Part shown: positions 9,838 through 63,960 of the stretch, piece after piece
Layout: the number at the start of each line of letters is the position of its first letter
How positions within the stretch are numbered: the stretch's first letter is position 1
Source: an uncultured virus (IMG/VR IMGVR_UViG_3300029985_000693)
Lineage: Duplodnaviria; Heunggongvirae; Uroviricota; Caudoviricetes
Length of the DNA stretch: 63,960 nucleotides
Direction: 5' to 3' (one strand)
Virus record (IMG/VR): IMGVR_UViG_3300029985_000693
Location: 62,001-125,960 of that record
Position numbers and translations under genes: made by a program
Notes under the pieces: model-generated
Seen by the model: the letters and a program-made list of their open reading frames with translations, nothing else
What the model was told of the DNA's origin: nothing
The model's database searches: none

Positions 9838-12780
9838 TTAGGTCCTTACGACTTCGCAAGCACCACCACCACATGCGACAGAGCCAGAGAAATCGGTATT
9901 GTTGTCCTCTTCTTTTACTTCTCTTAAATCTATTGACTTGACTAAAGAACTTAAAGTATTAAATGTATCTTCCGTGCAATCCTCAAAAGGCATTTGAACA
10001 TAAGAAGAATTGTCGTAAGGAAGTAGGGAGATGCCAGCGTAATGATTACGATTATCCCACATATACTTACATACACCATCCCACTCTTCTTCCTTAACAG
10101 ATACCGTACACGATACGTTGTGTTTATCAACTCCAGACACATGTCCTGCTGCCACCCAATACTTATTGTAAGCAATTGCTCGTTCCAGCAAATCCAGAGC
10201 AGACTCTTTCTCCCTTACAATAGCGTTACTTGGAGACATTTGAGGTATAGTAACTACGGTAGTATTTACCTCATTTTTTGCATCTTCACAAAGATCAGGA
10301 ATAACCATTTGTAAATATTTTGTTAGAGCGTCGTCCTTTACCATCCTGATCCTGCGTAGGTAATAGGGTGAGTGGCGTGCATGGATTCCACTAGAACTAC
10401 CCACAACGCAAGAACTAGAACCCTCCGGCTTGATTGTGGTGGTCCTGGCGGCTGGACGTATACCAATAGCCTTGGCAATAGATTGATTGGTCTCCAACAC
10501 CAGCTTGGCTCCTTCTTCTAGCCATTCATTTGTTACTATTCCATTGGCATCAGCAACTCCTGTTAATGAAACACCAATTAAGGCTTCATAATCTGTAATC
10601 TGCTTCCAAGCTTGACGTAGGTATGGGAAATCAGTATATGAAGCTTGCAATGTTCCAATAATAGAAGCTGCCTTAACCCTATTAAGAAAATCTTGTTTGG
10701 TTTTAATACCAGTTTGATTTACTGAGGTGAGATTGCAAAATTGACCCCCAAAGACTTGACCTACATCGGGTATATTCATTGAAGCATTTAATGATATTTC
10801 ATGGCACTGTCCAATATGAATACCTATGCCAATCGATAGTGAATGACTGCCATCTACAGTACAACAGTAAACTTTTTCATCCACACCATCATCAACTATA
10901 GAGACTATTTGATTATATTTATTTTTCAATGAATAGGTCGTGGTTTTATTAGAAAAAGAAATAAGTCTCTCGAATTTAACCTGTTTGGCCAAACAAATAG
11001 AAGAACTTTGACTGATAGTTAAACGATAAGCGTCTTTAGAATCATACGCTCCATATCCATCGTTAAAGTCTACTTTACATGCTTTTTTGGTTAACTTCAA
11101 CTTACTTCTAACACCAATAGTCTTAAGAAGTGTTTGAAAATCAGAAAGCCACTGCTTGTTTATTGAAGTGATTTGATACATAAATCCATTACGAGTGTCA
11201 CTTGAGGTTCCATCTGAATCCATGACTCCTGCGATAAAATCTAATTTAGACTGAAGATCCCAGACGAATACTTCTTTAGGTAGGGAGTGTTTGTATATAG
11301 TTGCCCAGTTTATAAGATCTTCTCGTCTTGGAGAAAGTCCCCTCATCCTCTTTCTGTTTTCACCAGAAGCAACAAAGTCTAAAGTGGAGACCTCATTATT
11401 TGTTTTGTCAGTATTGATGCAATCCAGCTCATTTGCTGATTTTAACAAGCGATCCTCACATGCATACTTGGTATCATAAAGGTACAAAAGTGGTATAATA
11501 CCATTACTCGCAGATCCGTCTCCAACTAGGAAACCTTTTAAATAGGCGGCTCTGGTTTTAACATTTCCGTTATTTAAAATAACCGATGGCCATAACTTAT
11601 TGCCAACAACTAAATCTTTAGCCTCTAAACGATCGCCGTTTTCCAATATAAAAGAGTGATATGGAGTTGTACGAACAATTGAACCATCTTGTAGTTCAAT
11701 CTTCAACATCTTTTGGTTTTCTCCAGTTACGCGGAAGTTATCAACTGACTGCCATTCGAAACCATTCCAGATATCTACTGTTTTACCTACCAAATCCTCA
11801 ACCGGAAATGTTCCCTGTTTGGTAACAATAAGAGTACCAGCACCAAAACATGGATTAAATCCAGTAACCAACGGATTACCAGACCACGAGAATCCAGGTT
11901 CACCAGAACCTGATTTACGACAAATATCAAATATATGGTAAAACTCATCCTTGGTAACTTCACCTCTAGGAAGGACGGCGCTGTTATTTGCACGGGCGCG
12001 ATATGGGTGTTTCTCCCACCAGTTACCTGATTTAGACTTAAGCATCTCTTCATCGTCACGACTGAATAAACAAATTAACGCGGCGCGTCTAATTCCCCCA
12101 GCAAGAACACAATCAGATCCAATACAAATAATATCGTGTACCTCTATTGGTTTAAGTTTACGACCAACAGCCGCTTTGAGTCTTATTTCAATTTCCTTCA
12201 AGGCATGCTTGAGTGGCTCTGGACCAGGAGCCTTTGCACCCGTAGTGACAAGAGGACTACCTTTTGCGCGAATCATACTAAAATCAAACTGAGGTTTTAC
12301 TTTACGATAAAAGTAAGCATCCATCAAAGCATCAAGGGCCTGAGCCCATCCCTCTATTGAGTCGTGAACTGTAAAATATCCCTCATCCCGAGGAAGTTGG
12401 ATTGTTGGTAGTTTAACTACATGTTCCTTTTGAACACTATATCCCACCCCAGTCCCAGAAAGCAGACAAAATAGAATTTCACCAAAAACTCTAGTATCAT
12501 CTATGGCGGTAAAAGCACAATTAAACAGACGGAGGTTGTTCTTAAGTACACCTTGTCCCCCAAACTGCATCCCTCTCATAGACGTTAAGCACTCTTTGTC
12601 CAAAACAAATTCGAAGGCATTCATTATCTTCTTTGATAGTTTTGGGAACCTGTCCAAATGCATAACCATTGAACGATTAACAGTTTCCTCCCAAGTCTCT
12701 CTACGGGAAAGATGAGATAAATGCTTGGCGTATGTACGAAATGATACTATCTGGGATAGAAGTGCAGATGAATTGTCCAT
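9838..12780 (-). CDS. nrdJ: class II (B12-dependent) ribonucleotide reductase containing an intein
   Basis: FNCA, GTGVG, GGIRRAA, NP|C.EI active site split by intein, TTIKPEG, C-terminal ACGGGACE. Confidence 0.92.
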   Translation of the reverse strand: MDNSSALLSQIVSFRTYAKHLSHLSRRETWEETVNRSMVMHLDRFPKLSKKIMNAFEFVLDKECLTSMRGMQFGGQGVLKNNLRLFNCAFTAIDDTRVFGEILFCLLSGTGVGYSVQKEHVVKLPTIQLPRDEGYFTVHDSIEGWAQALDALMDAYFYRKVKPQFDFSMIRAKGSPLVTTGAKAPGPEPLKHALKEIEIRLKAAVGRKLKPIEVHDIICIGSDCVLAGGIRRAALICLFSRDDEEMLKSKSGNWWEKHPYRARANNSAVLPRGEVTKDEFYHIFDICRKSGSGEPGFSWSGNPLVTGFNPCFGAGTLIVTKQGTFPVEDLVGKTVDIWNGFEWQSVDNFRVTGENQKMLKIELQDGSIVRTTPYHSFILENGDRLEAKDLVVGNKLWPSVILNNGNVKTRAAYLKGFLVGDGSASNGIIPLLYLYDTKYACEDRLLKSANELDCINTDKTNNEVSTLDFVASGENRKRMRGLSPRREDLINWATIYKHSLPKEVFVWDLQSKLDFIAGVMDSDGTSSDTRNGFMYQITSINKQWLSDFQTLLKTIGVRSKLKLTKKACKVDFNDGYGAYDSKDAYRLTISQSSSICLAKQVKFERLISFSNKTTTYSLKNKYNQIVSIVDDGVDEKVYCCTVDGSHSLSIGIGIHIGQCHEISLNASMNIPDVGQVFGGQFCNLTSVNQTGIKTKQDFLNRVKAASIIGTLQASYTDFPYLRQAWKQITDYEALIGVSLTGVADANGIVTNEWLEEGAKLVLETNQSIAKAIGIRPAARTTTIKPEGSSSCVVGSSSGIHARHSPYYLRRIRMVKDDALTKYLQMVIPDLCEDAKNEVNTTVVTIPQMSPSNAIVREKESALDLLERAIAYNKYWVAAGHVSGVDKHNVSCTVSVKEEEWDGVCKYMWDNRNHYAGISLLPYDNSSYVQMPFEDCTEDTFNTLSSLVKSIDLREVKEEDNNTDFSGSVACGGGACEVVRT
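10807..11850 (-). mobile_element. intein (348 aa) with LAGLIDADG homing endonuclease
   Basis: Starts CFGAGTLI; TPYH block B; LKGFLVGDG and FIAGVMDSDG; VYCCTV; ends HIGQ before Cys+1. Confidence 0.92.
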
Positions 12781-12794
12781 TTTTTCCTTGTAAT

Positions 12795-12870
12795 TGGCAG
12801 AGGGGGTTGGGATCGAACCAACTATTTACGCTTTTGGAGAGCGTCGTCTTACCGTTAAGACTTCCCCTCT
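12795..12870 (-). tRNA. tRNA-Trp (CCA)
   Basis: AGAGGGG/CCCCTCT acceptor stem, CT-CCA-AA loop, GTTCGATC T-loop, encoded CCA, 76 nt. Confidence 0.93.
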
Positions 12871-19821: not shown

Positions 19822-19897
19822 TGGCTGTGGAGGATGGGGTTGAACCATCGACATTCGGATTAACAGTCCGACGCTCTGCCAACTGAGCTACTCCACA
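19822..19897 (-). tRNA. tRNA-Asn (GTT)
   Basis: TGTGGAG/CTCCACA acceptor, CT-GTT-AA loop, GGTTCAACCC T arm, encoded CCA. Confidence 0.93.
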
Positions 19898-19910: not shown

Positions 19911-19940
19911 ACCTTAACATAGGTATCCTTGCGTTGTCAA
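19911..19940 (-). promoter_or_regulatory. sigma70-type promoter for tRNA-Asn
   Basis: TTGACA-N18-TAAGGT. Confidence 0.55.
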
Positions 19941-22947: not shown

Positions 22948-25215
22948 ATGGCTTCATCTCAAGACCAGCATTTTGCTAACTTTCAAAAGATACTATCCTC
23001 CAAGATAGTTGCCTATGGAGAGCACCAAGGCTCTGAAAAGGACTTTATTAAGTCTCAAAAGAAGCAAGTTCTTAAGCTTTCAAAGCTGGAAGAGATGTTT
23101 CGTAAGGAACTATTACGAACTCCTCATGGTTTGCAGGTCTACATGGAATTTATCAACTTCATTAGGGATGACCGAAAGAATATATTAGATGCCAGACCTT
23201 ACTTTCGTATAAGACAAGACGTGTTCACCAAGAAGGTATCCCCAGCCTTACGAACCAGGGATCCAAAGAACATACAAAAGTGTCATTTTAACTTTACCTT
23301 TATTTCATTTGCCATGAAATATGTAGTGTTATCACCCAATGACCCATTAACAGATATTTACGAAGAACTTAAAGAAGTAAGGAATAAGCTAATAGAAGTG
23401 AACACACCTTTGGCAATAGCCAGAAGCAGCCAATTCTATCGTAAAACTAAAAGAAATCACTTAACCCGCATGGACCTAATCCAGGTGGCGTTGGAAGGTT
23501 TGACTGCTGGAATAGACAAGTTTTGCGGTATTTACGACAATACCAAATACCGTCATATGCTTATAGGCAGAATTACGGGCAATCTAATTGAGGCTTATTG
23601 TATTGACGAAAACACAATATTAAACCCAATAGGCCAGCCTCCAAAGAAGATTTCAGAGTTTATTCCTGGTGATAAGATTTTAGGAATTGATGATTCTGGG
23701 GCTATTATAGAAACAGAAGTTGTAGCATTACACGATCATGGCGTCGTGGACGGCTATGAGGTTGAATTTGCCGATGGGTATAAGATAATATGCTCAAAAA
23801 ATCACAAATTCCTTACAGAAGAAGGTCAAATCCCAATTCACGAAATAGTATCCAGAGGCTTGGGTGTGCTTTGTGAGCCCACCAATGAAAACTGGTGGTT
23901 GGACAACTCATTGCCAAATGGTTCTACCGTCCAAGAGAAAGATGTATGCTCACAAAAAAGTATGTCCAATCTGCAAAACACTGGTATACGAGACCCGGCG
24001 CTCGAATGGGCTGAAACTAACCTTACATCAAACTCTAACCGAAGGATGGAAAAGTCTGTGCGGTCAGACTTTTCGAACACGTCGATTGTTTTACAGTCAC
24101 AGAAAAAACTGTCAGGTTTGTCAAAAAGCCATATTGGAGGGACTTGTCGCAAGGGCCAAGAATTGGCGGAACAAGAACATGGAACGTGTTCTAGAGCACA
24201 TGCGGAATATTTCGATAGCATTTCAGGAGTCTTTACAAAAAAGACCAGACCTAAAATCGAAACACACAGAAAAGGTGAAACAAGCTTCCATGGAATGGAG
24301 GTCGAAGAATCCAGAGGAATTCATCCTCAACATGAAAAAAGCCTGGGCCGCTCAGAAACCATCCAAGATGGAAGCGTGGTTACGGTCAAGCGGAACTATA
24401 ACCTGGGACGATGTTCAAATCAGATGCGGAAAGGAAAGAAAGCAGGTGGACTTCGTTTCTCCGGATCACAAAATATGGGTAGAAGTGGATGGGAGCTTTC
24501 ACTTCAAAGAAGTATCGACGAAGCCGTTGAAGCAGAGATTGCCAAAGATTCAGCAACGGGATGCCATGTTGAAGACGGAGGCCCTATTGAGGAAAGATGT
24601 GACTTTGATCCGATTAGCGGCGGATTGTTTCTATGCGACTGGCATACTAAAAGAGCCTTGGAGGGTGTGGCTATCAAACATGCTCCTCTCACCTCGACCA
24701 GGGGTTTGGTGTTGCGGAAAGTTGTACGATTTAGCCCCATGGGCACAAGAAGGATGTACGATCTTGAGGTCGCCCACCCCAAACATAACTTCCTTTTGCC
24801 TAACGGAATAGTTACTAGCAATTCCGAAACAATGGTTCATTTTTACCCAACAGACAAGAGAAAACTGTATAATGCAAACAAAGTAATGAATAAATGTCGT
24901 ACAGAGGATTTTCAAGAAATATCTGCCAGGGTAAATGATTTAGCTAAAGAGCATTTATACACCACTACCCCAGAAGAAGTAACACATTTAGTGGCAGCTA
25001 GTAATCTAATTAATGCCGACTTCTCACCTCCCGCCCATTCCGGTGATAACCAAACCAAGACTATACAAGATACGATGCAGTATGCCGATGTACCGGAAAA
25101 ACAACCAGATATAGGTTATGAAGCACATGAATTGAGCGGCAAGTTAGCACAAGCAATACGCAAATTAACAGTATTTGAGCAAAAACTACTAAGACTCAAG
25201 GGAATGGAATTTTAA
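22948..25215 (+). CDS. phage sigma70-family sigma factor interrupted by an intein
   Basis: Region 2 LIEVNTPLA...DLIQVALEGLTAGIDKF; spliced product about 347 aa, ending early in region 4. Confidence 0.8.
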   Translation: MASSQDQHFANFQKILSSKIVAYGEHQGSEKDFIKSQKKQVLKLSKLEEMFRKELLRTPHGLQVYMEFINFIRDDRKNILDARPYFRIRQDVFTKKVSPALRTRDPKNIQKCHFNFTFISFAMKYVVLSPNDPLTDIYEELKEVRNKLIEVNTPLAIARSSQFYRKTKRNHLTRMDLIQVALEGLTAGIDKFCGIYDNTKYRHMLIGRITGNLIEAYCIDENTILNPIGQPPKKISEFIPGDKILGIDDSGAIIETEVVALHDHGVVDGYEVEFADGYKIICSKNHKFLTEEGQIPIHEIVSRGLGVLCEPTNENWWLDNSLPNGSTVQEKDVCSQKSMSNLQNTGIRDPALEWAETNLTSNSNRRMEKSVRSDFSNTSIVLQSQKKLSGLSKSHIGGTCRKGQELAEQEHGTCSRAHAEYFDSISGVFTKKTRPKIETHRKGETSFHGMEVEESRGIHPQHEKSLGRSETIQDGSVVTVKRNYNLGRCSNQMRKGKKAGGLRFSGSQNMGRSGWELSLQRSIDEAVEAEIAKDSATGCHVEDGGPIEERCDFDPISGGLFLCDWHTKRALEGVAIKHAPLTSTRGLVLRKVVRFSPMGTRRMYDLEVAHPKHNFLLPNGIVTSNSETMVHFYPTDKRKLYNANKVMNKCRTEDFQEISARVNDLAKEHLYTTTPEEVTHLVAASNLINADFSPPAHSGDNQTKTIQDTMQYADVPEKQPDIGYEAHELSGKLAQAIRKLTVFEQKLLRLKGMEF
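23599..24822 (+). mobile_element. intein (408 aa) in sigma factor
   Basis: CIDENTIL...PGDKILG; CSKNHKFLT block B; MYDLEV..HNF block F; ends GIVTSN before Ser+1. Confidence 0.9.
23864..24811 (+). CDS. Vsr/DUF559-like homing endonuclease nested in +1 frame inside the intein
   Basis: CPIC, CQVC zinc motifs; KHTEKVK NUMOD-like segment; QVDF..PDHKIWVEVDGSFH...RD...LIR nuclease core; exact start uncertain (23864/23885/23942). Confidence 0.8.
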   Translation: MCFVSPPMKTGGWTTHCQMVLPSKRKMYAHKKVCPICKTLVYETRRSNGLKLTLHQTLTEGWKSLCGQTFRTRRLFYSHRKNCQVCQKAILEGLVARAKNWRNKNMERVLEHMRNISIAFQESLQKRPDLKSKHTEKVKQASMEWRSKNPEEFILNMKKAWAAQKPSKMEAWLRSSGTITWDDVQIRCGKERKQVDFVSPDHKIWVEVDGSFHFKEVSTKPLKQRLPKIQQRDAMLKTEALLRKDVTLIRLAADCFYATGILKEPWRVWLSNMLLSPRPGVWCCGKLYDLAPWAQEGCTILRSPTPNITSFCLTE

Positions 25216-29629: not shown

Positions 29630-30601
29630 ATGGCTACTTTCAACGAACAATCCAATATTCAGTCGTTTTTCGACAACCCCAGAGCTATCCCCCAGCAATT
29701 TGCCTTTAATACTATTCAAAATATAGTAAATTTACCGGTAAATAATCCCACTGAGGTTAATTTAACCGTTCAGGCTGGATCTACTCTTTCCGCTTTCAAC
29801 ACATCTGTAGCTACCTCTATAGATAGTACTACTGTTTTTAGTCTTTCTGCCAATCCAATCATCTCTGGTACTTATAGATTTACCAACACGGGAGGTACGG
29901 CTCCTGCCTTTAGGACCGATAGGGGTCTTGCTCTTAACGGCCAAACCGCTTCTATTTCAACCAATACAAATGGAAGTGTTACTTTTTCTATTGTAGCTGG
30001 CTCTTTGGCGGCTCTTCAGGTCGGTGATTCTCTATTCATCCCCGGATTGTCCACTGGAGACGCTACGGGACCGTTTAATCCATCAAATGAGGGGCTTTGG
30101 ACGGTTACCTCAACCGGAACCCTATCTGTTACCCTGGTGCGTCCTGGGACGTTCAGTGCGTACTCCCAAGCTGGAGTAGTTATAACCTCCAACAGTCAAG
30201 TCCTCGGGTACTCATCTACCGGTGTTCAAATTGGTAATTTAGTCGATATACTAAGTGGGTTCAACGCTTATACCACAGGTACCTACACTGTAAGTCAAGT
30301 AACTCCTGGTTGGGTAGAGGTACAATCAGCTCAAGCCCTTCCTCCTCAAACAGGGATTATGCCCGGTGCTTCTGGAATGAATTTTTACAGTGGAGCTAAA
30401 CGCTGGATTAGGGTTCAAGTTAATCAATCAGCCGCCTTACAGTTAAATGGAGATACCACCATAGACACCCGTTTGGATCCAATTGTAATACAAGATGGTT
30501 CTCAATATGCCTTTATGGAAAAAATAGGTTCTGTATTCAGCCTATCAATTGTAAATCGCTCTCTTTATTCAATGGCAGTACGAATTATGAGTTTTGAATA
30601 A
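29630..30601 (+). CDS. putative virion structural protein
   Basis: Thr/Ser/Gly-rich beta composition, between terL and portal. Confidence 0.6.
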   Translation: MATFNEQSNIQSFFDNPRAIPQQFAFNTIQNIVNLPVNNPTEVNLTVQAGSTLSAFNTSVATSIDSTTVFSLSANPIISGTYRFTNTGGTAPAFRTDRGLALNGQTASISTNTNGSVTFSIVAGSLAALQVGDSLFIPGLSTGDATGPFNPSNEGLWTVTSTGTLSVTLVRPGTFSAYSQAGVVITSNSQVLGYSSTGVQIGNLVDILSGFNAYTTGTYTVSQVTPGWVEVQSAQALPPQTGIMPGASGMNFYSGAKRWIRVQVNQSAALQLNGDTTIDTRLDPIVIQDGSQYAFMEKIGSVFSLSIVNRSLYSMAVRIMSFE

Positions 30602-36923: not shown

Positions 36924-36952
36924 ACAATACCATACGGTTTTGGGGTTGTCAA
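36924..36952 (-). promoter_or_regulatory. sigma70-type promoter, leaderless spacing
   Basis: TTGACA-N17-TATTGT-N8-ATG. Confidence 0.7.
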
Positions 36953-45804: not shown

Positions 45805-46932
45805 ATGAATTGGTTAGATGATTTAATAAAAAACAATCCTACCTTCAAGGAATCACTAGAAAATCTAGGGGGTTCGGGAGGGGGAGTGTCTTCAGATGAT
45901 GTTCAAAGACTTAATAATCATCTAAATACAGACACGCTTACTGGTCTTGGCAACCGTAAGGCTTATAACGAACATATATCCAAAAATCCAGAAGGATTCC
46001 ACATACACATAGAAGGCAACGATCACGGGCATTTAACTAAAACCCATGGGATTGGCCCATCTGAAGACGCCTTAAAAGCCTACGCTACGTCTGCCCAATC
46101 GGCGATGGACACTATGGTTGGCAGAGGTAAGGGAAAACTATTTAGATTGGAAGGTGATAAGTTCGTAGCCCACATCCCTACCGAAGCTGAAGCTCATTCA
46201 TTTGTAAGAGCTTTCAGGAATCATCTAGAGTCCCATCCTCCTGTCATGGGAACCCACAATATGGCTGCTACGATTGGGATTGGTTCTAACCAACTAGAAG
46301 CATCTGGAGCCTTGAAAGAAGCCAAGGCGGACCGTAAGGCTATGGGTTACGAAAAGGGTAGTTCTAAAACCCACATCAAAATTCATGGTTCTGATATTTA
46401 TAAATCAGAATCAGAATTTCCGGATTTACAGAAAATGGCCATCAAGGGCTTGGCTCCTGGACCTCAGGTCCAACAAGATATCTACGATTATTCCCACCTA
46501 CTAACTCCAGCCCATAGGGCTTCTGGCTATAAAGTACAGCTTAAGTCTAGACGAGTAGGTCATGGTAGGCATACGTTGGAGTCCAACATCTTCCATAACG
46601 AGATCCCAGTTGGATTCGCTTCTTCTTTCATGGAACCAGACCATTTAGGGCGTCCAGCCGTCAATATAGAGCACTCCAACATAGAGCCTGAACACCAACG
46701 TAAGGGTCTTGGAGTAGCGGCATACGAAGCCCTATTGACTCATGGCCATCATAAGCTTGGAGCTACCAGGGTTGCAGGAGACATACATTCCACCTCTGCC
46801 TCTGGAGTCCACCAAAAGCTTTCCGACAAGCACGGTATGGACTATAAACCTCAAGATAACCCGAATAAGTTTCACGATCAAACGGGTCCTTACGACAACA
46901 GATTCTCAGAATATAATTATCCCATAAAGTAG
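45805..46932 (+). CDS. degenerate GGDEF domain fused to GNAT acetyltransferase
   Basis: DTLTGLGNR, FRLEGDKF; IEPEHQRKGLG acetyl-CoA motif. Confidence 0.75.
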   Translation: MNWLDDLIKNNPTFKESLENLGGSGGGVSSDDVQRLNNHLNTDTLTGLGNRKAYNEHISKNPEGFHIHIEGNDHGHLTKTHGIGPSEDALKAYATSAQSAMDTMVGRGKGKLFRLEGDKFVAHIPTEAEAHSFVRAFRNHLESHPPVMGTHNMAATIGIGSNQLEASGALKEAKADRKAMGYEKGSSKTHIKIHGSDIYKSESEFPDLQKMAIKGLAPGPQVQQDIYDYSHLLTPAHRASGYKVQLKSRRVGHGRHTLESNIFHNEIPVGFASSFMEPDHLGRPAVNIEHSNIEPEHQRKGLGVAAYEALLTHGHHKLGATRVAGDIHSTSASGVHQKLSDKHGMDYKPQDNPNKFHDQTGPYDNRFSEYNYPIK

Positions 46933-46937
46933 GTTAA

Positions 46938-47108
46938 ATGGAATTTAACAAAAGATTGTTCAAGTCCTTTAGATTTTGTAAACACGATTGGATTGAAGAA
47001 CATACCGAGTTGGAGTATTTAAAATATAGGGAAGAATTGTTATTTGATTGCGATCTTTGTAAAAAAACTGTAGTGTACAATCTTAAGGCCAGGGAATCCC
47101 GAGAGTAA
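46938..47108 (+). CDS. small CxH/CxxC protein (same family as 49.4-52.4 kb array)
   Basis: FRFCKH...CDLC, 56 aa. Confidence 0.55.
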   Translation: MEFNKRLFKSFRFCKHDWIEEHTELEYLKYREELLFDCDLCKKTVVYNLKARESRE

Positions 47109-47133: not shown

Positions 47134-48039
47134 TTGGATACCATAAAAGCCCCAAATACATTAAAGTACTATTCCGATGATATTTCCGATAAAGAAATAG
47201 CTGAAGGTCTAGAAGATGAGCATCCTTTGGTGGTGTTGGCTGCTCGTAAGGCTCAAGCCAAGCGTAAGGGGATTGGGTTCGTCCACGGTTTGAATATAAC
47301 GCACAGCGTTGTATCTGTTGGGGGAAAACACCTAGACCAAATATTCCTACACGCTCCGGTTGGATTCTCTGAGGATCCTGTAGTTCAAAAGGTAATGGCT
47401 AACTACAACCAAAAGTTCCATCACTTTAACCCTCATTTCGATGGGACGGTTTTGGGTTATGTTACGTATGGGGATGGAATGGTTCATTTTGCTAGCTTCC
47501 CATTCTTGGATACCAATACCGTGGATCCTGTTTATGAGTTTATGGGTATTACCCAACCCTACCTAAACAACGAATTTACGGGGATCTTACGTACCGGAGT
47601 TTCTGATTACCTAGGTATAAAGCCAGAAGACCTAACCGGTTATATTGAAAATATCCTTAGTGGATACCTAGGGACTTTCATTTCTATTCCATCCAGTAAT
47701 GACCATTTAACTAATTATTTGATTGCCACCGTACCTTTAAAGGGAGAGCAGTGGGATACAATGAACAAACTTTCCCTGTATTCGGATGTTGGTTCAAACA
47801 TGGAGTTGTTCCAAACCATGTTCAAGTATCTATTTGACGAGTCTTACCAGAAAGAGATAACCGATAAGGCTGTTAATGGGACCAATGGGTGGGATACTTA
47901 CCTACGTACCGCCTGGATCATGCTTCAATCCCGTCTAGCCTCCATCTCCAAAGAAGAGATTGAATATTATGAACAAAACAATGGGGCTTGTAATTTCTAC
48001 AATCCCGAAGTAACTGTAAGTCCAATGAAAGAAGAATAA
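47134..48039 (+). CDS. hypothetical protein
   Basis: 301 aa, TTG start with GAGG upstream. Confidence 0.65.
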   Translation: MDTIKAPNTLKYYSDDISDKEIAEGLEDEHPLVVLAARKAQAKRKGIGFVHGLNITHSVVSVGGKHLDQIFLHAPVGFSEDPVVQKVMANYNQKFHHFNPHFDGTVLGYVTYGDGMVHFASFPFLDTNTVDPVYEFMGITQPYLNNEFTGILRTGVSDYLGIKPEDLTGYIENILSGYLGTFISIPSSNDHLTNYLIATVPLKGEQWDTMNKLSLYSDVGSNMELFQTMFKYLFDESYQKEITDKAVNGTNGWDTYLRTAWIMLQSRLASISKEEIEYYEQNNGACNFYNPEVTVSPMKEE

Positions 48040-48043
48040 ATAT

Positions 48044-48337
48044 ATGTTTAAAATAGGCCGCGCTACATTTTGTGATTCTTGTGGTAATATACGTTTAACT
48101 AAGGTTTTAAACCAAGGCAAGACCAATCACCACGAAATGCTATTGGGGCGATTTGATCGTCACTCAATTATCCATCAAGAACCAAGCGAATTCCCATATA
48201 CTTGCTTGGACTGCAAGAAGGTTGTCACCGACCCAAACGCTCCGGCTCCAGTGGTGGCTCCAGTGGTAACCAAGGTCTCCGTAAAGACCCCAGAACCGGT
48301 TATCCACCTAGCTCCTGAAGATGAAATCAAGGAATAA
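48044..48337 (+). CDS. zinc-ribbon protein
   Basis: CDSC...CLDC. Confidence 0.6.
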   Translation: MFKIGRATFCDSCGNIRLTKVLNQGKTNHHEMLLGRFDRHSIIHQEPSEFPYTCLDCKKVVTDPNAPAPVVAPVVTKVSVKTPEPVIHLAPEDEIKE

Positions 48338-49321: not shown

Positions 49322-49384
49322 ACTCTACCAAAGAGAGTAAGAGGTGTCAAGGGGGTTGCAAAAAATCGTTAGGTGTGTTAGATT
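49322..49384. promoter_or_regulatory. back-to-back sigma70-type promoters
   Basis: Minus: TTGACA-N17-TAGAGT-N7-ATG (49322-49350); plus: TTGCAA-N17-TAGATT (49356-49384). Confidence 0.7.
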
Positions 49385-49400
49385 CAAACATTGGAGTGAA

Positions 49401-52400
49401 ATGAAAAGACTATACTTTTATTTACGCTTGTGTAGGCATAAACCTACATATCTTTCTTTGTTAGAGACAGATGCCAGTACCGCCTGGATCACATGTAAGG
49501 ATTGCTGTGACAATATAATTGGCTATTATAGGTTTGATTTTACAAATAGGTGCATCAAAAGGGTTAAAAGCTACTTACAAGGAAAGGGTGAAAAGTCAGG
49601 AGAATGAATAAAGTATTAATAATACAGCCCTGTAAGCACAATAAGTTGATAAACTATACAGACTCAGAAGTATATTGGGCTGCTATGGAATGTATAGCTT
49701 GTGATAGATACTACTTTTTCAACTTTTTAACCAGACAGCTTATTTTTGAAGAACCCAAAGGTGTTGGTTGGTATAGAGTAAGAAAATGATTAAAAATCCC
49801 ATTTATGTACGTCCATGTAAGCACAACACCTACTCTGGTGTAGGTTACTACATAATAGACAACCAATTAAGCTACGAGTGCGAACAATGCACTATGTTTT
49901 TTCAAAAGAAGGATCATAGAGTTGACCTTATATATTACGCTTTTACAGGAGAAAGAAAAATAAAACCAATAGTAAAATGGTGGAATGAAGGATATTTCAC
50001 TTACACTACATGGGAACAATTTTTGTCTTGCCATAATAGACTTCGGAATAAGTTGGAATATTATCTGTTTAAAATTTTGTACTTTTTGGCTAGATTCTTC
50101 TGGGTCATTATTGATAACGATTTTTTTTAGGATACCATCCTACCTAGACCTACATCATGATAAATACAATCAAAGAATTTAACATCTACTTCCGGTTCTG
50201 CAAACACATCTTTGGATATACTTGTTATTTGTCCAAAGAAAACTTCCTGTTTCAAGGTAAGAGTGAACCTATAATAAGAAGATGGGTGTTTTGTAATGAT
50301 TGCAAAAAATACTTTACCATTAATGAACGGCTTGTGATTCCCAACAGAATTACCAAAAAGTCTAACCTTCTAGATTCGGTACTGGGTTAAATGAGATCTT
50401 TCTACTATATACGTGTATGTAGGTCGTGCGTATATTCCAATAATGTATTTGACTATTTTTGCTGTATACATTGCAAACTGGATCATGTAATTAGGGATAG
50501 AATTGTTGAAAATATTGAATGTGGAGTCTGGATATGAAAAACACCCTTGTGTATTCTATTGGTACCACATGAAAACCCATCCCTATTACCGTCCTTGCCC
50601 ACATGTACATACATACGACTCTGGTAAATACGGAAAGTTCTTTTCCAACCCATTAAGTGAATGTATGTATTGCAATCTGAGTCTAATAGCTAACGATAGG
50701 GCTGTTTATACTATAGATTTGTACTCCGATGATTACGATGATTTCGAAGAAGATGGTTCCATATTGTGAAATATAAATTACCCTATTACAGACCTTGCAA
50801 ACACTCCCAAGGAATAATGAAGTCTTGCTCAACCTGCTCAGTCTACTTGTTGGATAGAGTTTGTCATAAAATAGTCAACTTTTCTAATTGGACCGGAATG
50901 GGACCGCTTAATTCGGGCAAATAATATGAAAAACGTACTATTTGTAAGACCATGTAGGCATTTGTACGATACAGATAATTACGCTTCTTGGGAAGGTATG
51001 GGGTGTTCTGATTGTAGAATAAGGTATTATTTCGATTATACAAACCGATACCTTTCCTTCCGTAAATACAGAATAATACTCCGGAATACCAAATGAAATA
51101 CAACTTTTACACTAGATACTGCCCTCACTATTTCAATGCATACGAAGATGAAGATGAATACGATTTATTGGCACTAATATGCTGTGGTTATTGCGGAGTA
51201 CTCCACTACCAATTTAAACTCTCCAGCCGAACCCTGATCGTATCCAAATGCGATTATTTGGGCGATGAATGATATTTTGGGATTTTGATAGAGACAAATG
51301 AATAATATAATATCTAAATACTATAAGTCCTTCCCTTACGTAAGATTTTTGGGTCACTATGCCCGACTCTTAACCTCAATACTGGCCTAAACCCCTGGAT
51401 TAAGCCTTGCTATGTATAACAAAACCAACCTACCCTATTACCGTCCTTGCCCCCATACATATACCTATGATACGATTAGATATAATAAGTTCTGTTTAAA
51501 TCCCTTAAGAGATTGTACGTATTGCTCCACCTCCCTAACTGTTAACGAAAGGAATGTTGAAGCCATGGAACTATACAACAAATACTACTACGAAGAGGAT
51601 GAAATTGAAATACAATTTACCTTATGTAAGACAATGTAGGCATCTATACGATCCAATTCTGTTCTACCTATACGAAGTAGGTGCGTCGTGCCGTGATTGT
51701 CGAATCGTATACTTTTTCAACGATACAACCCGACAACAGGATAGCCGTAAATACCTACCTATACCCAAAAACCAATGAAATATACTTTTTATACCAGATA
51801 TTGCCCTCATTCCTATAATGCCCCTAAAGATGTCCATATATGCGATTTATTGGAAATGTATTGTTGCACCCCTTGCGGGGAATCCCATTTCCTATTTAGA
51901 CTCACCGACCGAACCTTAATTACTACCAAATGTGATTTTTACAACCAAGAGGAAACAAACCGTATCCCTATCCCCGACCTCTTACAGTTTTTAAACACAC
52001 CTTAATACCCTCTGAAAACCCAATGTATAAACTATCCCCATACTATAAATACAAACCCTACGTAAGGTTTTGCGGCCACCCCTCGATCTGCTTTTGGGAT
52101 TCTTACTCCCACTTGTGCCTTATATGCCAAACACAAACAAGGTTTGATACAATTACCAGGGAAATAAGTTTTATAGAAAAATTATAATAAGGATCCTCCT
52201 TGAAACCAACCAAATCCCCCTTGTCCCAAAATTCCCCATACCGTCGCCCCTGCAAACACCTTTTCGTTGCCCTTAAATTACAAATCGAATTATGGCTACA
52301 AACAAACAATACTACCGTAGACGCTCTTTGTATGGTGAAAATGGAAGAACACCCGACCTTTCTTTTTTAGATATAAAATTTTTATAAAAAAAATTGGATT

Positions 52401-52430
52401 TAACTTAAAGGGACTACAGAGTAAATACCC
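49401..52430 (+). other. tandem array of about 15 small paralogous CxH/CxxC ORFs
   Basis: ORFs at 49401, 49604, 49786, 50157, 50391, 50569, 50766, 50926, 51093, 51298, 51412, 51599, 51775, 52023, 52200; most share [YF]x[R]xCxH...CxxC. Confidence 0.8.
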
Positions 52431-52432
52431 CT

Positions 52433-52527
52433 GGTAACGGTTCCTTGGTAATGGTTCCTTGGTAATGGTTCTTAACGTAACGGTTCCTTGGTAACGGTTC
52501 CTTGGTAACGGTTCCTTGGTAACGGTT
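52433..52527. repeat. 14-bp tandem repeat GGTAACGGTTCCTT, about 7 copies
   Basis: Direct reading; two copies have GGTAATGG, one is irregular. Confidence 0.95.
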
Positions 52528-52885
52528 TTATTAGGGGAAAATTATCTTAAAAATTCCAGGTGTAATACGTAAAGTCCCCCCAAACCCCAAAACCCCCTAT
52601 CCTACCCAGGGGAACCTCCCCGGATAGTATCACCTATACCCCCCCCCGTGATTACCCTGTAAGGAATAACCCCTAAGACTAAGGTCCAGGATCCTTGGCA
52701 AGGATCTTGCTTGGTAAACCCGGTATGTTTATTGCATAGGGGAACCGGCATGGTTATTGCTAGTGGTAGCGTGGCAACGATATTGCAAGGATCCTAATGG
52801 TATGGTTATTGCATAGGGATTTCGTTGCTTGCAAGCCTTATGCCATATCATTAGCAATGGTTTCCCGGCTATGGTCCCTTTGGAT

Positions 52886-52901
52886 TGTTCCACGTGGAAC
52901 A
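52886..52901. promoter_or_regulatory. parS: parS site
   Basis: TGTTCCACGTGGAACA inside a perfect 24-bp palindrome (52882-52905). Confidence 0.85.
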
Positions 52902-52996
52902 ATCCTGCGCGTGCGCATGTGTGTGTATGTGGATGTGAGTGTATGCCCACATCTATATATGGTGTGTCGTACCCAAGACCTAGGTCTCAAGCTTTC

Positions 52997-53039
52997 TGGG
53001 GATAACCTGTTAGTAAGCTGTTAGTAAGCCTGTGGATAA
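52997..53039. promoter_or_regulatory. DnaA-box array
   Basis: TGGGGATAA, TGTTAGTAA, TGTTAGTAA, perfect TGTGGATAA at 11-12 bp period. Confidence 0.7.
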
Positions 53040-53785
53040 CTTTTGGCACGGATCTTGTCTAGGCGTTTTCAGCGTCTGGACGGGATAGAGCCTAGGGATC
53101 CTCGGGCCGCGCTAGGAAGGGCGGATCCGCTCGTTTAATTGGCATTTAGCGCAAAGCGTCATTTAATCCGACTTTAGTCTTATTTTTGAGACCCTAAGCA
53201 AGATCCTTGCCAAAGAGTCTAAGCTATGTCGGCACGTTTGTTGCTACGCGCGCGGGCGCTTGATCCTTTGGTAAGGGATTAGAATTTCCCCTACGGGGAG
53301 AAACCGTTCGTTTGAGACGACGACGCATTGCGTCAAGAGTTTTACGTTAGGGGAATTCGAGGATTCCTCTAGCGGTCTAACCCCTTGAATTCCTTACTGT
53401 ACAGTTTCACTACAGACTATGACAACCTTGTCCTAGTGACTTTTCTCAATGGTTTCATACAGTTAACCCTTTTTAGACCTTAGTCCTATGATCCAAGCGT
53501 CTCGATCCTGTCTGTTTTGCTGTACCATTTGGATCGTTTCCCCTACGGGGAGAGATCGTTCGATCCCATTGTAATCATTACACTTTTTTCCCCGCCCTGT
53601 TTTGGCGTAACGCTTGGCATGGCCGCTGCATAATAGGCCATTATCTCAGTTTGGTTCGCTCCTCTCTCTCTCCGAGGCGTTTCCCCTCTCCCCGCTGTTT
53701 CCCTCTACAGAAAAAGGATTGACGGCCCCCTTCTTCTCTGGTACAACCTTCCCCGCTGTTTCCCTCTACGAAAAGGATCCTCCCC

Positions 53786-59372: not shown

Positions 59373-59864
59373 ATGAGCGACTCCGAAGCATTGGCAACCT
59401 TGAAGCGATATCTGCGCGGCGCGAACCTGAACGGTGCGGACCTGTGCGACGCGAACCTGCGCAACGCGAACCTGCGCGACGCGAACCTGAGCGGTGCGGA
59501 CCTGTGCGGTGCGAACCTGAGCGGTGCGAACCTGCGCGACGCGAACCTGAGCGACGCGGACCTGAGCGGTGCGAACCTGTGCGACGCGGACCTGAGCGGT
59601 GCGGACCTGAGCGGTGCGAACCTGAGCGGTGCGAACCTGAGCGACGCGAACCTGTGCGGTGCGGACCTGAGCGGTGCGGCCCTGTGCGGCGCGGACCTGA
59701 GCAACGCGGCGGACCTGAGCATCGCGGACCTGAGCGGTGCGAACCTGAGCGGTGCGGACCTGAGCGACGCGCACCTGAGCGGTGCGGCCCTGCGCAACGC
59801 GGACCTGAGCGGCGCGTATTTTTACAACCACGGAACTCTCTACAAGGTCGCCTCGGCGATCTAA
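59373..59864 (+). CDS. pentapeptide-repeat protein
   Basis: A(N/D)LxG/D repeats, 15-nt DNA periodicity. Confidence 0.9.
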
Positions 59865-61476: not shown

Positions 61477-62183
61477 ATGAAAACCTACACGCAAAAAGAA
61501 CTTTCCGAAACCCTCCGTTTGCATAAACTCTGGTTAGAAGGTAAGACCGAAGGTGTACAGGCCGATCTGTACGATGCCGATCTGTCCGGGGCCGATCTGT
61601 CCGGGGCCAATTTGACCGGGGCTAATTTGACCGGGGCCAATCTGTCCGGGGCTAATTTGACCGGGGCCAATCTGTCCGGGGCTATTCTGACCGGGGCCGA
61701 CCTGACCGGGGCCAATCTGACCGGGGCCGACCTGACCGGGGCCAATCTGGAAGGGGCCAAATTGACCGGGGCCAATCTGTCCAGGGCCAATCTGTCCAAG
61801 GCCAATCTGTCCAAGGCCGATCTTACCGGGGCCAATCTGAGCGGGGCCAACGGTTTCCCAGAAGAGGAAATTGCCAAGCGTCAAATTGTACCGAAGGAAG
61901 GGGAGTTTATTGGTTACAAAAAGCTTGGAAACGGTACGGTGGCGAAGCTTTTGATTCCGGCCGGGGCCAAGCGCATCGGGGGATGACCGATCGCAAGTGT
62001 CGGGCTGAGTTCGCAACGGTACTGGAAGGATCCGGCTTTTCCCGGTATGATTCTTCTTTTGAGTACCGTTGCGGGGAAACCGTTTATCCAACTACTGAAA
62101 ATCCCTTCAACCCAGATCCTTTGGTGAAATGTTCTGGGGGGATCCATTTTTTTCTTACCCCAGAAGAAGCCGAAGCTTATTAA
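61477..62183 (+). pseudogene. pentapeptide-repeat + DUF5758-like protein split by frameshift in a G5 run (ORFs 61477-61986 and 61983-62183)
   Basis: [17 protein letters not shown] / RKCRAE...SRYD..F.Y...C..GIHFF.T.EEA. Confidence 0.7.
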
Positions 62184-63597: not shown

Positions 63598-63960
63598 ATG
63601 AAAACCTACACGCAAAAAGAACTTTCCGAAACCCTCCGTTTGCATAAGCTTTGGTTAGAAGGTAAGGCTGGAGGTGTACTGGCCAATCTGTACGGGGCTA
63701 TTCTGTCCGGGGCCAATCTGTCCGAGGCTATTCTGTCCGGGGCCGAACTGATCAGGGCCAAATTGACCGGGGCCAATCTGTCCGGGGCCGAACTGATCAG
63801 GGCCAATCTGTCCGGGGCCGAACTGATCAGGGCCAATCTGACCGGGGCCAAATTGACCGGGGCCAATCTGTCCGGGGCCAATCTGTCCGGGGCCAATCTG
63901 TCCGGGGCCGATCTGTACGGGGCCACACTGACCTGGGCCACACTGACCTGGGCCAAATTG
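63598..63960 (+). CDS. pentapeptide-repeat protein (runs off window edge)
   Basis: [23 protein letters not shown] identical to 61477 N-terminus, then AxLxG repeats. Confidence 0.9.

Follow-up and report, generated by a model that had tools for sequence, protein, structure and literature searches.

We report that a run of fifteen small open reading frames (ORFs) on the + strand of a peat phage sequence, at positions 49401-52370, is a true family of paralogous genes whose small protein products are under purifying selection. The sequence analyzed, referred to as the window, is the 63,960-nucleotide (nt) second half of IMG/VR record IMGVR_UViG_3300029985_000693, which has 125,960 bases and a CheckV completeness of 78%. 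The array ORFs encode 30-114 amino acids (aa) at a coding density of 95.5%, and a sixteenth, outlying member starts at 46938; members are named below by the window position of their first nucleotide. As far as sequence comparison goes, the family is unclassified and new, in an arrangement of known kind. We tentatively read it as a birth-and-death repertoire of zinc-ribbon microproteins, which may serve as non-catalytic binders of host or host-defence targets.

A first-pass annotation of the window, made from its letters alone, had described about 15 tiny paralogs with a CxH...CxxC motif and an outlier at 46938. All 15 motifs that it listed are present where it placed them, on the + strand. The pattern [RQ]-x-C-x-H-x(4-40)-C-x-x-C had 12 matches in 49401-52430, whereas 1000 random sequences of matched composition gave a mean of 0.003 and a maximum of 1; the entire 125,960-base record had 13 matches. 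The full CxH...CxxC set was kept in 12 of the 15 array members (13 of 16 counting the outlier), and an invariant Arg and an aromatic residue lie beside the first ligand of the motif. When each member was left out of the profile hidden Markov model (HMM) together with its sister copy, 12 of the 16 members took rank 1 of 3749 small ORFs, while 51775 ranked 2, 52023 ranked 4, 51298 ranked 45 and 50391 ranked 1057. The members are nevertheless diverged, with a median pairwise identity of 23% (13 aligned members), and in a tree of 15 members none of the 12 inner branches was well supported. The genes had also been described as often ATGA-coupled, and neighboring genes do overlap by 4 nt (ATGA/GTGA) at 5 of the 14 junctions; one further pair overlaps by 41 nt, and the remaining pairs are 0-31 nt apart. 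Six members had been placed below a 60-aa cutoff, a count that depends on the choice of start: eight fall below it with the starts chosen here and seven under the first-start rule of the ORF listing.

Part of the array is duplicated, with one block copy opening at 50569 and the other at 51412. We aligned the two copies frame-blind at the DNA level, where they are 64% identical over 680 aligned nt. In the annotated frame, the ratio of nonsynonymous to synonymous substitution rates (dN/dS) was 0.38, with 0 stops in 183 codons, whereas in four other frames it was 0.83-1.22 and each copy had 4-16 stops. For the antisense frame, in which third positions coincide, the ratio was 0.49 and the copies had 16 and 11 stops. 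The 12 ligand codons were all retained between the duplicates. In 3000 permutations, none matched the observed ratio of nonsynonymous to synonymous proportions (pN/pS), none kept all 12 ligands and 2 were stop-free. The non-ligand codons were constrained too (pN/pS 0.59 versus 0.83 in the null). Moreover, the motif codons vary synonymously, Arg being encoded from both the AGR and CGN boxes and Cys and His each by both of their codons.

These results bear on whether the ORFs are genes at all. A decayed DNA repeat or recombination-site array with incidental ORFs, which the first-pass annotation had itself named as what could undo a family, draws on the residual DNA identity, including a 23-nt stretch that is 96% identical between array copies. 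However, the synonymous motif codons, the frame-specific dN/dS, the stop-free frames, the retained ligands and the lack of any Rfam match effectively refute this explanation. Of the expected constant scaffold and variable surfaces, a constant N-terminal motif and variability in the loops and tails were borne out. The N-terminus and motif were 80% identical (pN/pS 0.21), while the loop was 41% identical (0.53), the CxxC and hairpin 48% (0.62) and the tail 43% (0.85), each value resting on a small sample of 28-60 codons.

The duplication also preserves a record of recombination. The duplicated block had been taken to hold four genes, but it held five (50569/50766/50926/51093/51298), and the second copy is short by exactly one unit of 157 nt. 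This gap opens at the first motif codon in the 50766-type gene and closes at the equivalent codon in the 50926-type gene, and 157 nt is the exact spacing of the motif codons in 50766 and 50926. Gene 51599 has a junction at 51624/51625: on its 5' side, 17 of 21 nt agree with 50766 and 9 of 21 with 50926, and on its 3' side 26 of 30 nt agree with 50926 and 12 of 30 with 50766. Since the gap equals the motif-codon spacing and the match of 51599 is split, one unit was gained or lost, and the in-frame chimera was formed, by crossing over at the motif codons. The two sequences are most simply read as the loss of a unit from copy 2, rather than as a gain in copy 1.

The array had been called accordion-like, and the 157-nt gap and the chimera bear out one gain or loss of a unit at the motif in its history. 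The tandem copies are not near-identical as in an accordion of the tifA-dmd or SegB type, the youngest block pair having 64% DNA identity. Copy-number variation was not seen in the runs compared, 4 of the 24 sequencing runs listed for the virus, which are all peat metagenomes from 2019-2020, possibly of one campaign. The four runs have depths of 1-11 and shallow contigs that drop rare variants, and one of them covers 19 of 30 bins. The accordion is thus shown as history and not as current variation. Separately, one contig of run X5 ends loosely at window 51249, with 209 unrelated letters before the join, and may represent an alternative allele or another organism. Table 1 lists the members together with the neighboring features discussed below.

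Table 1. Members of the array and associated features (window positions unless a relative is named; rank, leave-one-out rank among 3749 small ORFs)
Feature	Position	Strand	Description
Paralog 1	49401..49607	+	68 aa, YLRLCRH...CKDC; rank 1 of 3749
Paralog 2	49604..49789	+	61 aa, IQPCKH...CIAC; rank 1
Paralog 3	49786..50130	+	114 aa, YVRPCKH...CEQC; C-terminal extension, moderately hydrophobic stretch; rank 1
Paralog 4	50157..50390	+	77 aa, YFRFCKH...CNDC; spacer 28 residues; rank 1
Paralog 5	50391..50537	+	48 aa, YIRVCRS...CIHC; His-to-Ser ligand loss; weakest, rank 1057; assigned by motif and position
Paralog 6	50569..50769	+	66 aa, YYRPCPH...CMYC; acidic tail; opens block copy 1; rank 1
Paralog 7	50766..50924	+	52 aa, GTG start, YYRPCKH...CSTC; spacer 7 residues; 5' end common to chimera 51599
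Paralog 8	50926..51096	+	56 aa, FVRPCRH...CSDC; body common to chimera 51599
Paralog 9	51093..51272	+	59 aa, YTRYCPH...CGYC; rank 1
Paralog 10	51298..51390	+	30 aa, YVRFLGH; Cys-free, truncated, probably pseudogene; sister of 52023
Paralog 11	51412..51639	+	75 aa, YYRPCPH...CTYC; sister of 50569; opens block copy 2
Paralog 12	51599..51778	+	59 aa, YVRQCRH...CRDC; in-frame chimera, 50766-type start and 50926-type body
Paralog 13	51775..52005	+	76 aa, YTRYCPH...CTPC; sister of 51093
Paralog 14	52023..52187	+	54 aa, YVRFCGH...CLIC; rank 4
Paralog 15	52200..52370	+	56 aa, TTG start, YRRPCKH, without CxxC; degenerate; rank 1
Outlying paralog	46938..47108	+	56 aa, SFRFCKH...CDLC; end of prohead-protease gene run; rank 1
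Putative sigma-70-like array promoter	49356..49384	+	TTGCAA-17-TAGATT, extended TG; 8/12, weak; GGAG at 49393-49396
Divergent sigma-70-like promoter for MazG-like gene	49322..49350	-	TTGACA-17-TAGAGT; 10/12
14-nt tandem repeat closing the array	52432..52527	.	6.8 copies; guanine-plus-cytosine (GC) content beyond rises from about 36-38% to about 52%
Pre-dnaE microprotein genes	L084:8959-9216, L123:11236-11523, L100:16789-16983		orthologous set in three relatives

Four Cys/His ligands in two knuckles, as in a zinc ribbon or one-domain zinc finger, are present in 13 of the 16 members. An AlphaFold2 model of paralog 8 (50926), built on a 13-row alignment, had a predicted local distance difference test score (pLDDT) of 70 and a predicted template modeling score of 0.50, with strands at residues 25-27, 32-37 and 42-47; in it the CxxC turn runs, at low confidence, into a beta-hairpin. 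The motif and the model fit a Cys3His zinc ribbon with a predicted metal site. Fold searches gave no Foldseek match at E<=0.001 and a best VIA Z of 3.9, with none at 5. The idea of one gene per propeller blade was rejected: the beta-propeller rows among the matches (Z 3-3.9) are generic meanders and leave it without support.

The array proteins are enriched in Tyr, Cys, Arg and Phe, and Cys makes up 6% of residues versus 1% in core genes. Net charge is positive in 11 of the 16 members and four are acidic, with isoelectric points spanning 4.6-10. The many Cys and His residues per kilobase, and the extra Cys/His in several members, could point to a metal sponge, that is, to proteins made in bulk that store zinc, or a different thiophilic metal, or buffer its level in infection and, for example, starve zinc-dependent host enzymes. 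We consider such a role very unlikely. Neither the conserved Tyr and Arg nor the long variable loops would be needed for it, and about one site per 60 residues is a poor capacity compared with metallothioneins.

The 50-nt gap 5' of the array holds two back-to-back promoter-like sites, one facing the array and the other a MazG-like gene (phrog_229 match, E 4.5e-4). The single promoter claimed ahead of the array thus has a candidate with an extended TG element, but one that matches the consensus weakly and is unlisted by the standard promoter scan, whose 18 sites equal the number expected by chance (17.5). Similar sigma-70-like sites precede replication and accessory genes. A late-type motif, N-AAT-Y-Y-T-W, lay no more than 40 nt from the start in 22 of 62 structural-region ORFs, 1 of 46 replication ORFs, 0 of 18 early ORFs and 0 of the 16 family members. 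This distribution is suggestive only, as the motif was picked visually in the very upstream regions that were then counted and shadow ORFs are among those classed; a narrower pattern showed no enrichment over the whole window (6 versus 7.3). The weak sigma-70-like promoter, together with the missing late motif, suggests early or middle expression of the array. Terminator-like hairpins within the array were no more frequent than by chance.

Two further observations concern promoters elsewhere in the window. Divergent sigma-70-like promoters with back-to-back -35 boxes recur (49322-49384, 36946-36952 and 19934-19940), and many virion genes, e.g., at 29630, 42088, 43348 and 43402, have a YAATYTTA-like motif 5-9 nt (in some cases 18-29 nt) ahead of their ATG. 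This motif is a candidate phage late promoter, and its short spacing would imply nearly leaderless late mRNAs.

The absence of the late motif also bears on the possibility that the products are packaged in the virion, in the manner of the T-even internal-protein locus, with the N-terminus as a capsid-targeting signal and the variable part as an injected inhibitor. The N-terminus is indeed the most conserved part, the outlier lies just after the prohead-protease gene run, and T4 internal proteins, according to parts of one source, have a common packaging motif and include inhibitors (PMC9391042). On the other hand, the late motif precedes no array gene, and a cleaved leader is unlikely because the conserved N-terminus holds two predicted metal ligands. 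Packaging seems very improbable to us.

In the reading that we tentatively favor, one small zinc-ribbon gene would have expanded by birth and death within this lineage to give the array. Its products would be single domains of 50-75 residues, in which an N-terminal Y-x-R-x-C-x-H knuckle and a CxxC knuckle close a putative Cys3His metal site, followed by a beta-hairpin; the inter-knuckle loop (7-28 residues) and the tail differ among members in length, sequence and charge. The common motif codons would provide in-register microhomology, so that recombination between neighbors adds or removes units and swaps 5' ends, as seen once in 51599. Purifying selection holds most copies while a few decay. 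The block would probably be transcribed from a host sigma-70-type promoter in an early or middle program and be translationally coupled. The conserved Tyr/Arg face may dock on a common type of partner, with the variable loop and tail setting specificity.

Several findings weigh against this reading. Three copies are incomplete, namely 50391 (His to Ser), 51298 (30 aa, Cys-free) and 52200 (CxxC-free). The first-position GC of the array is 0.35 versus 0.51 in core genes, as relaxed selection predicts, and because of this low value, the skewed composition and the three decaying copies, the constraint is moderate. Diversifying selection was not evident, as pN/pS exceeded 1 in no region of the block-pair comparison. 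The model of a second member was poor (pLDDT 57). The promoter match is weak (8/12), a clear Shine-Dalgarno site is missing before most internal array genes, and the outlier 46938 sits in a gene run opened by a late motif. The four runs showed no substitution, indel or joint within the array, and three substitutions downstream. Members had no significant defence-related match in the libraries scanned, where the AcrID1 profile was not searched directly, and no named anti-defence gene was found among the scanned flanking genes; neither the library scans nor the flanking-gene scans gave any functional link to the members. Finally, GC content is 42% here versus about 55% in Myxococcus phage Mx1, the nearest cultured phage, so that kinship with Mx1 does not give the host.

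Part of this evidence would suit largely redundant duplicates, in which dosage amplification of one useful gene is followed by weak selection on the zinc fold only, with no distinct targets. Three of the 15 copies are degenerate, the codons are AT-rich at all three positions, the tails are near neutral (pN/pS 0.85) and amplification at microhomologies is easy in phages, as sections of two reports describe (PMC9391042, PMC13096335). Yet the copies are old, the youngest duplicate pairs having a synonymous divergence (dS) of about 1.0, and 12 of 15 still keep their ligands and open frames; the constraint on non-ligand codons argues in the same direction. A headful-limited phage normally sheds redundant DNA quickly, which also weighs against redundancy. 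We regard this explanation as doubtful.

Alternatively, the copies could be nucleic-acid- or RNA polymerase-binding regulators of the phage's own program, with the Tyr/Arg face touching DNA or RNA. This would accommodate the invariant Arg and the aromatic residue by the first ligand and the positive charge of 11 of the 16 members, and viral CxxC microproteins are discussed as nucleic-acid binders or regulators in part of a previous study (PMC7230728). However, four members are acidic, and the 12 relatives examined run the same core program without the family. Fifteen diverged regulators would be odd in one phage, and no clear fold match to a known regulator was found. We consider regulators unlikely, if somewhat less so than the other alternatives. 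A stronger form of the birth-and-death reading is a phage binder library, in which a fixed Cys3His scaffold with motif codons as crossover points, at which units trade starts, loops and tails, yields new chimeras that each neutralize a different host or defence target. This version we hold to be a long shot; if true, a bacterial virus would naturally possess a repertoire of shufflable mini-scaffolds.

The phage itself could be placed from its genes. The window encodes a terminase, a portal protein, a major capsid protein, DnaE, a ribonucleotide reductase, GroEL and a sigma factor. Comparison with Mx1 gave a capsid identity of 54.8% and 46 common genes with a mean identity of 36.6%, and the virus is a large peat phage and, by these sequences, kin of Mx1. 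Contigs bearing the major capsid protein in two metagenome-assembled genomes were rejected as a clue to the host, since they look like binning strays. A 162-kb contig shares 21,389 identical bases with the window; about 36 kb of this 162-kb genome lies outside the sequence analyzed here, where further outlying members are possible. The sequence evidence on the array comes from one near-clonal population on record.

An HMM search and a comparison of copy number among relatives had been suggested along with the first-pass annotation, and both were run. A profile of 13 of the 16 members gave 6 matches among 22 candidates from 5.8 billion proteins and 8 matches among 1.84 billion representatives, and every confirmed protein match belonged to the window's own population. 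Of 2188 candidates among longer proteins, none was a match. The outlier alone matched only itself (1 of 1), and tblastn in 50,697 phage records found nothing. The 57-position profile needs about 35 bits, so that remote kin would be missed in these protein searches. When viral contigs were scanned for the pattern of a 5-member alignment, 14 stretches came up and none was confirmed, and the same kind of scan with the flanking genes 47134 and 43402 confirmed none. In 41 related records, the profile found nothing credible (0 of 5, none in Mx1, and 1 of 35, which lay within a longer frame and had an E of 1.8). The members had no significant match in Pfam, PHROGs (best E 0.0026), NCBIfam, PADLOC, the PDB sequences (best E 0.13) or Rfam. 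A literature search, in which subscription journals were poorly covered and supplements excluded, found no description of Mx1, of DUF1660 or of a tandem zinc-microprotein array in a phage.

The direct scan of relatives covered 12 genomes, namely Mx1, seven rated complete and four partial, with 1.4 kb of G026 outside the scan. They carry 0-5 dispersed small CxH...CxxC ORFs per genome and no array; together, 32 of 3748 small ORFs have the pattern versus 5.5 by shuffling, the 32 including some endonuclease-like and shadow ORFs. These ORFs were the best outside matches of the array HMM, at 10-13.5 bits. Of the 11 relatives with a match to dnaE, 3 have an orthologous CxH...CxxC gene directly before it, a position at which the phage studied lacks one; the orthologous set had a profile-profile probability of 5% against the array. 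A BLAST-based test found no array of comparable size in the 12 relatives, but this test is insensitive and linked only 3 members of the array studied here. The scattered ORFs indicate that the ligand pattern is a common accessory stock of the phage group and that the 15-fold Y-x-R expansion is private to the lineage as sampled. Two other repeat features were seen in these records: four near-tandem paralogs of another small family (82-87 aa) at G014:C1:9933-11254, and regularly repeated translated words in an Mx1-like phage record, at G027:C1:1-298 and 47774-48190, which suggest CRISPR-like (clustered regularly interspaced short palindromic repeat) arrays.

Other features of the window were recorded in passing. 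Just before the outlier, 45805-46932 encodes a 375-aa head-region protein with a C-terminal GNAT domain, the N-terminal part of which matches an Mx1 protein annotated as nucleotide cyclase. On the 3' side of the tandem repeat, no clear gene is seen for about 1.3 kb; then comes 52% GC DNA with DUF932 and other small genes, among them pentapeptide-repeat genes at 59373-59864, 61477-61986 and 63600-63960. The gene-poor stretch 52415-53785 has further short repeats, an inverted pair (52692-52712/53196-53216) and a cumulative GC-skew minimum, and is a candidate origin or genome end. Genes for tRNA-Trp and tRNA-Asn lie at 12795-12870 and 19822-19897. Intein-like insertions were seen in the ribonucleotide reductase gene (9838-12780) and the sigma-factor-like gene (22948-25215), the latter with a nested, antisense-independent ORF at 23864-24811, in a different frame, that resembles an endonuclease. 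Entries of the protein collection that read through TGA (P0011 and P0013) were dismissed as artefacts of gene calling, since table 11 leaves the long core genes intact and the stops of homologue-bearing genes are TAA in 48, TAG in 11 and TGA in 3.

Bacterial viruses seldom carry large tandem families of diverged microproteins, and such arrays are easily missed, as half of the genes in this one fall under common ORF cutoffs. The family offers direct sequence evidence of purifying selection together with chimera formation at a common motif, and lets one ask whether phage paralog arrays provide distinct specificities or only dosage. Fifteen genes of 50-110 aa on one scaffold are also a cheap, ready-made panel for pooled anti-defence, toxicity and pull-down screens.

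Among known families, DUF1660 (PF07874) resembles the array in its phage proteins of 50-65 aa with an N-terminal Cys...His and a later CxxC, and DUF1660, the highest named look-alike, and PF28035 appeared among the ESM Atlas look-alikes of the outlier (0.85), as leads only, all Atlas matches being below 0.9. Membership in DUF1660 was rejected. The Pfam HMM, with a cutoff of 21.4 bits that all four Lactococcus phage proteins used as positive control exceeded, matched 0 of the 16 members at E<=1 and nothing in the genome at E<=10, and the hhalign probability was 0.3%. The four Lactococcus members carry M-K-L-x-C-K-L-x-G-H-K-W, with Cys and His four residues apart (C-x3-G-H-K-W), whereas the array has R-x-C-x-H, and the four phages examined have one copy each. 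The scattered CxH...CxxC microproteins of Mx1-like phages share the ligand pattern and size of the array, but they are dispersed singletons without Y-x-R, and common ancestry is unproven.

The excerpted accounts of other systems offer further parallels. HF1-like haloviruses and haloarchaea have numerous small CxxC microproteins, encoded outside the assembly region and of unknown function; they are described by the CxxC motif and not as a single tandem paralog family, and the hosts are archaeal (PMC7230728). In T4, tifA-dmd is amplified via microhomology (PMC9391042), and in T6 amplification of SegB-tRNA is driven by SegB (PMC13096335). As in the array, tandem copies are gained and lost by recombination at short homologies, but those repeats arose in laboratory passages with a dosage effect, whereas the array copies are ancient and diverged, have no adjacent homing endonuclease and showed no copy-number variation in the four runs. 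The AcrID1 clusters of the rudiviruses SIRV1-3 differ in belonging to archaeal viruses, in lying near genome ends and in having many early promoters of their own, while the array is one packed run with no member of known function and no sequence link shown. SIRV2 has 12 AcrID1 homologues, five of them without an early promoter and with their function unexplored (PMC11065993). Like the array, these clusters contain many diverged small paralogs per viral genome, of which one is a known inhibitor and the rest are unexplained (PMC11065993, in part), and by this analogy the array may have an anti-defence role.

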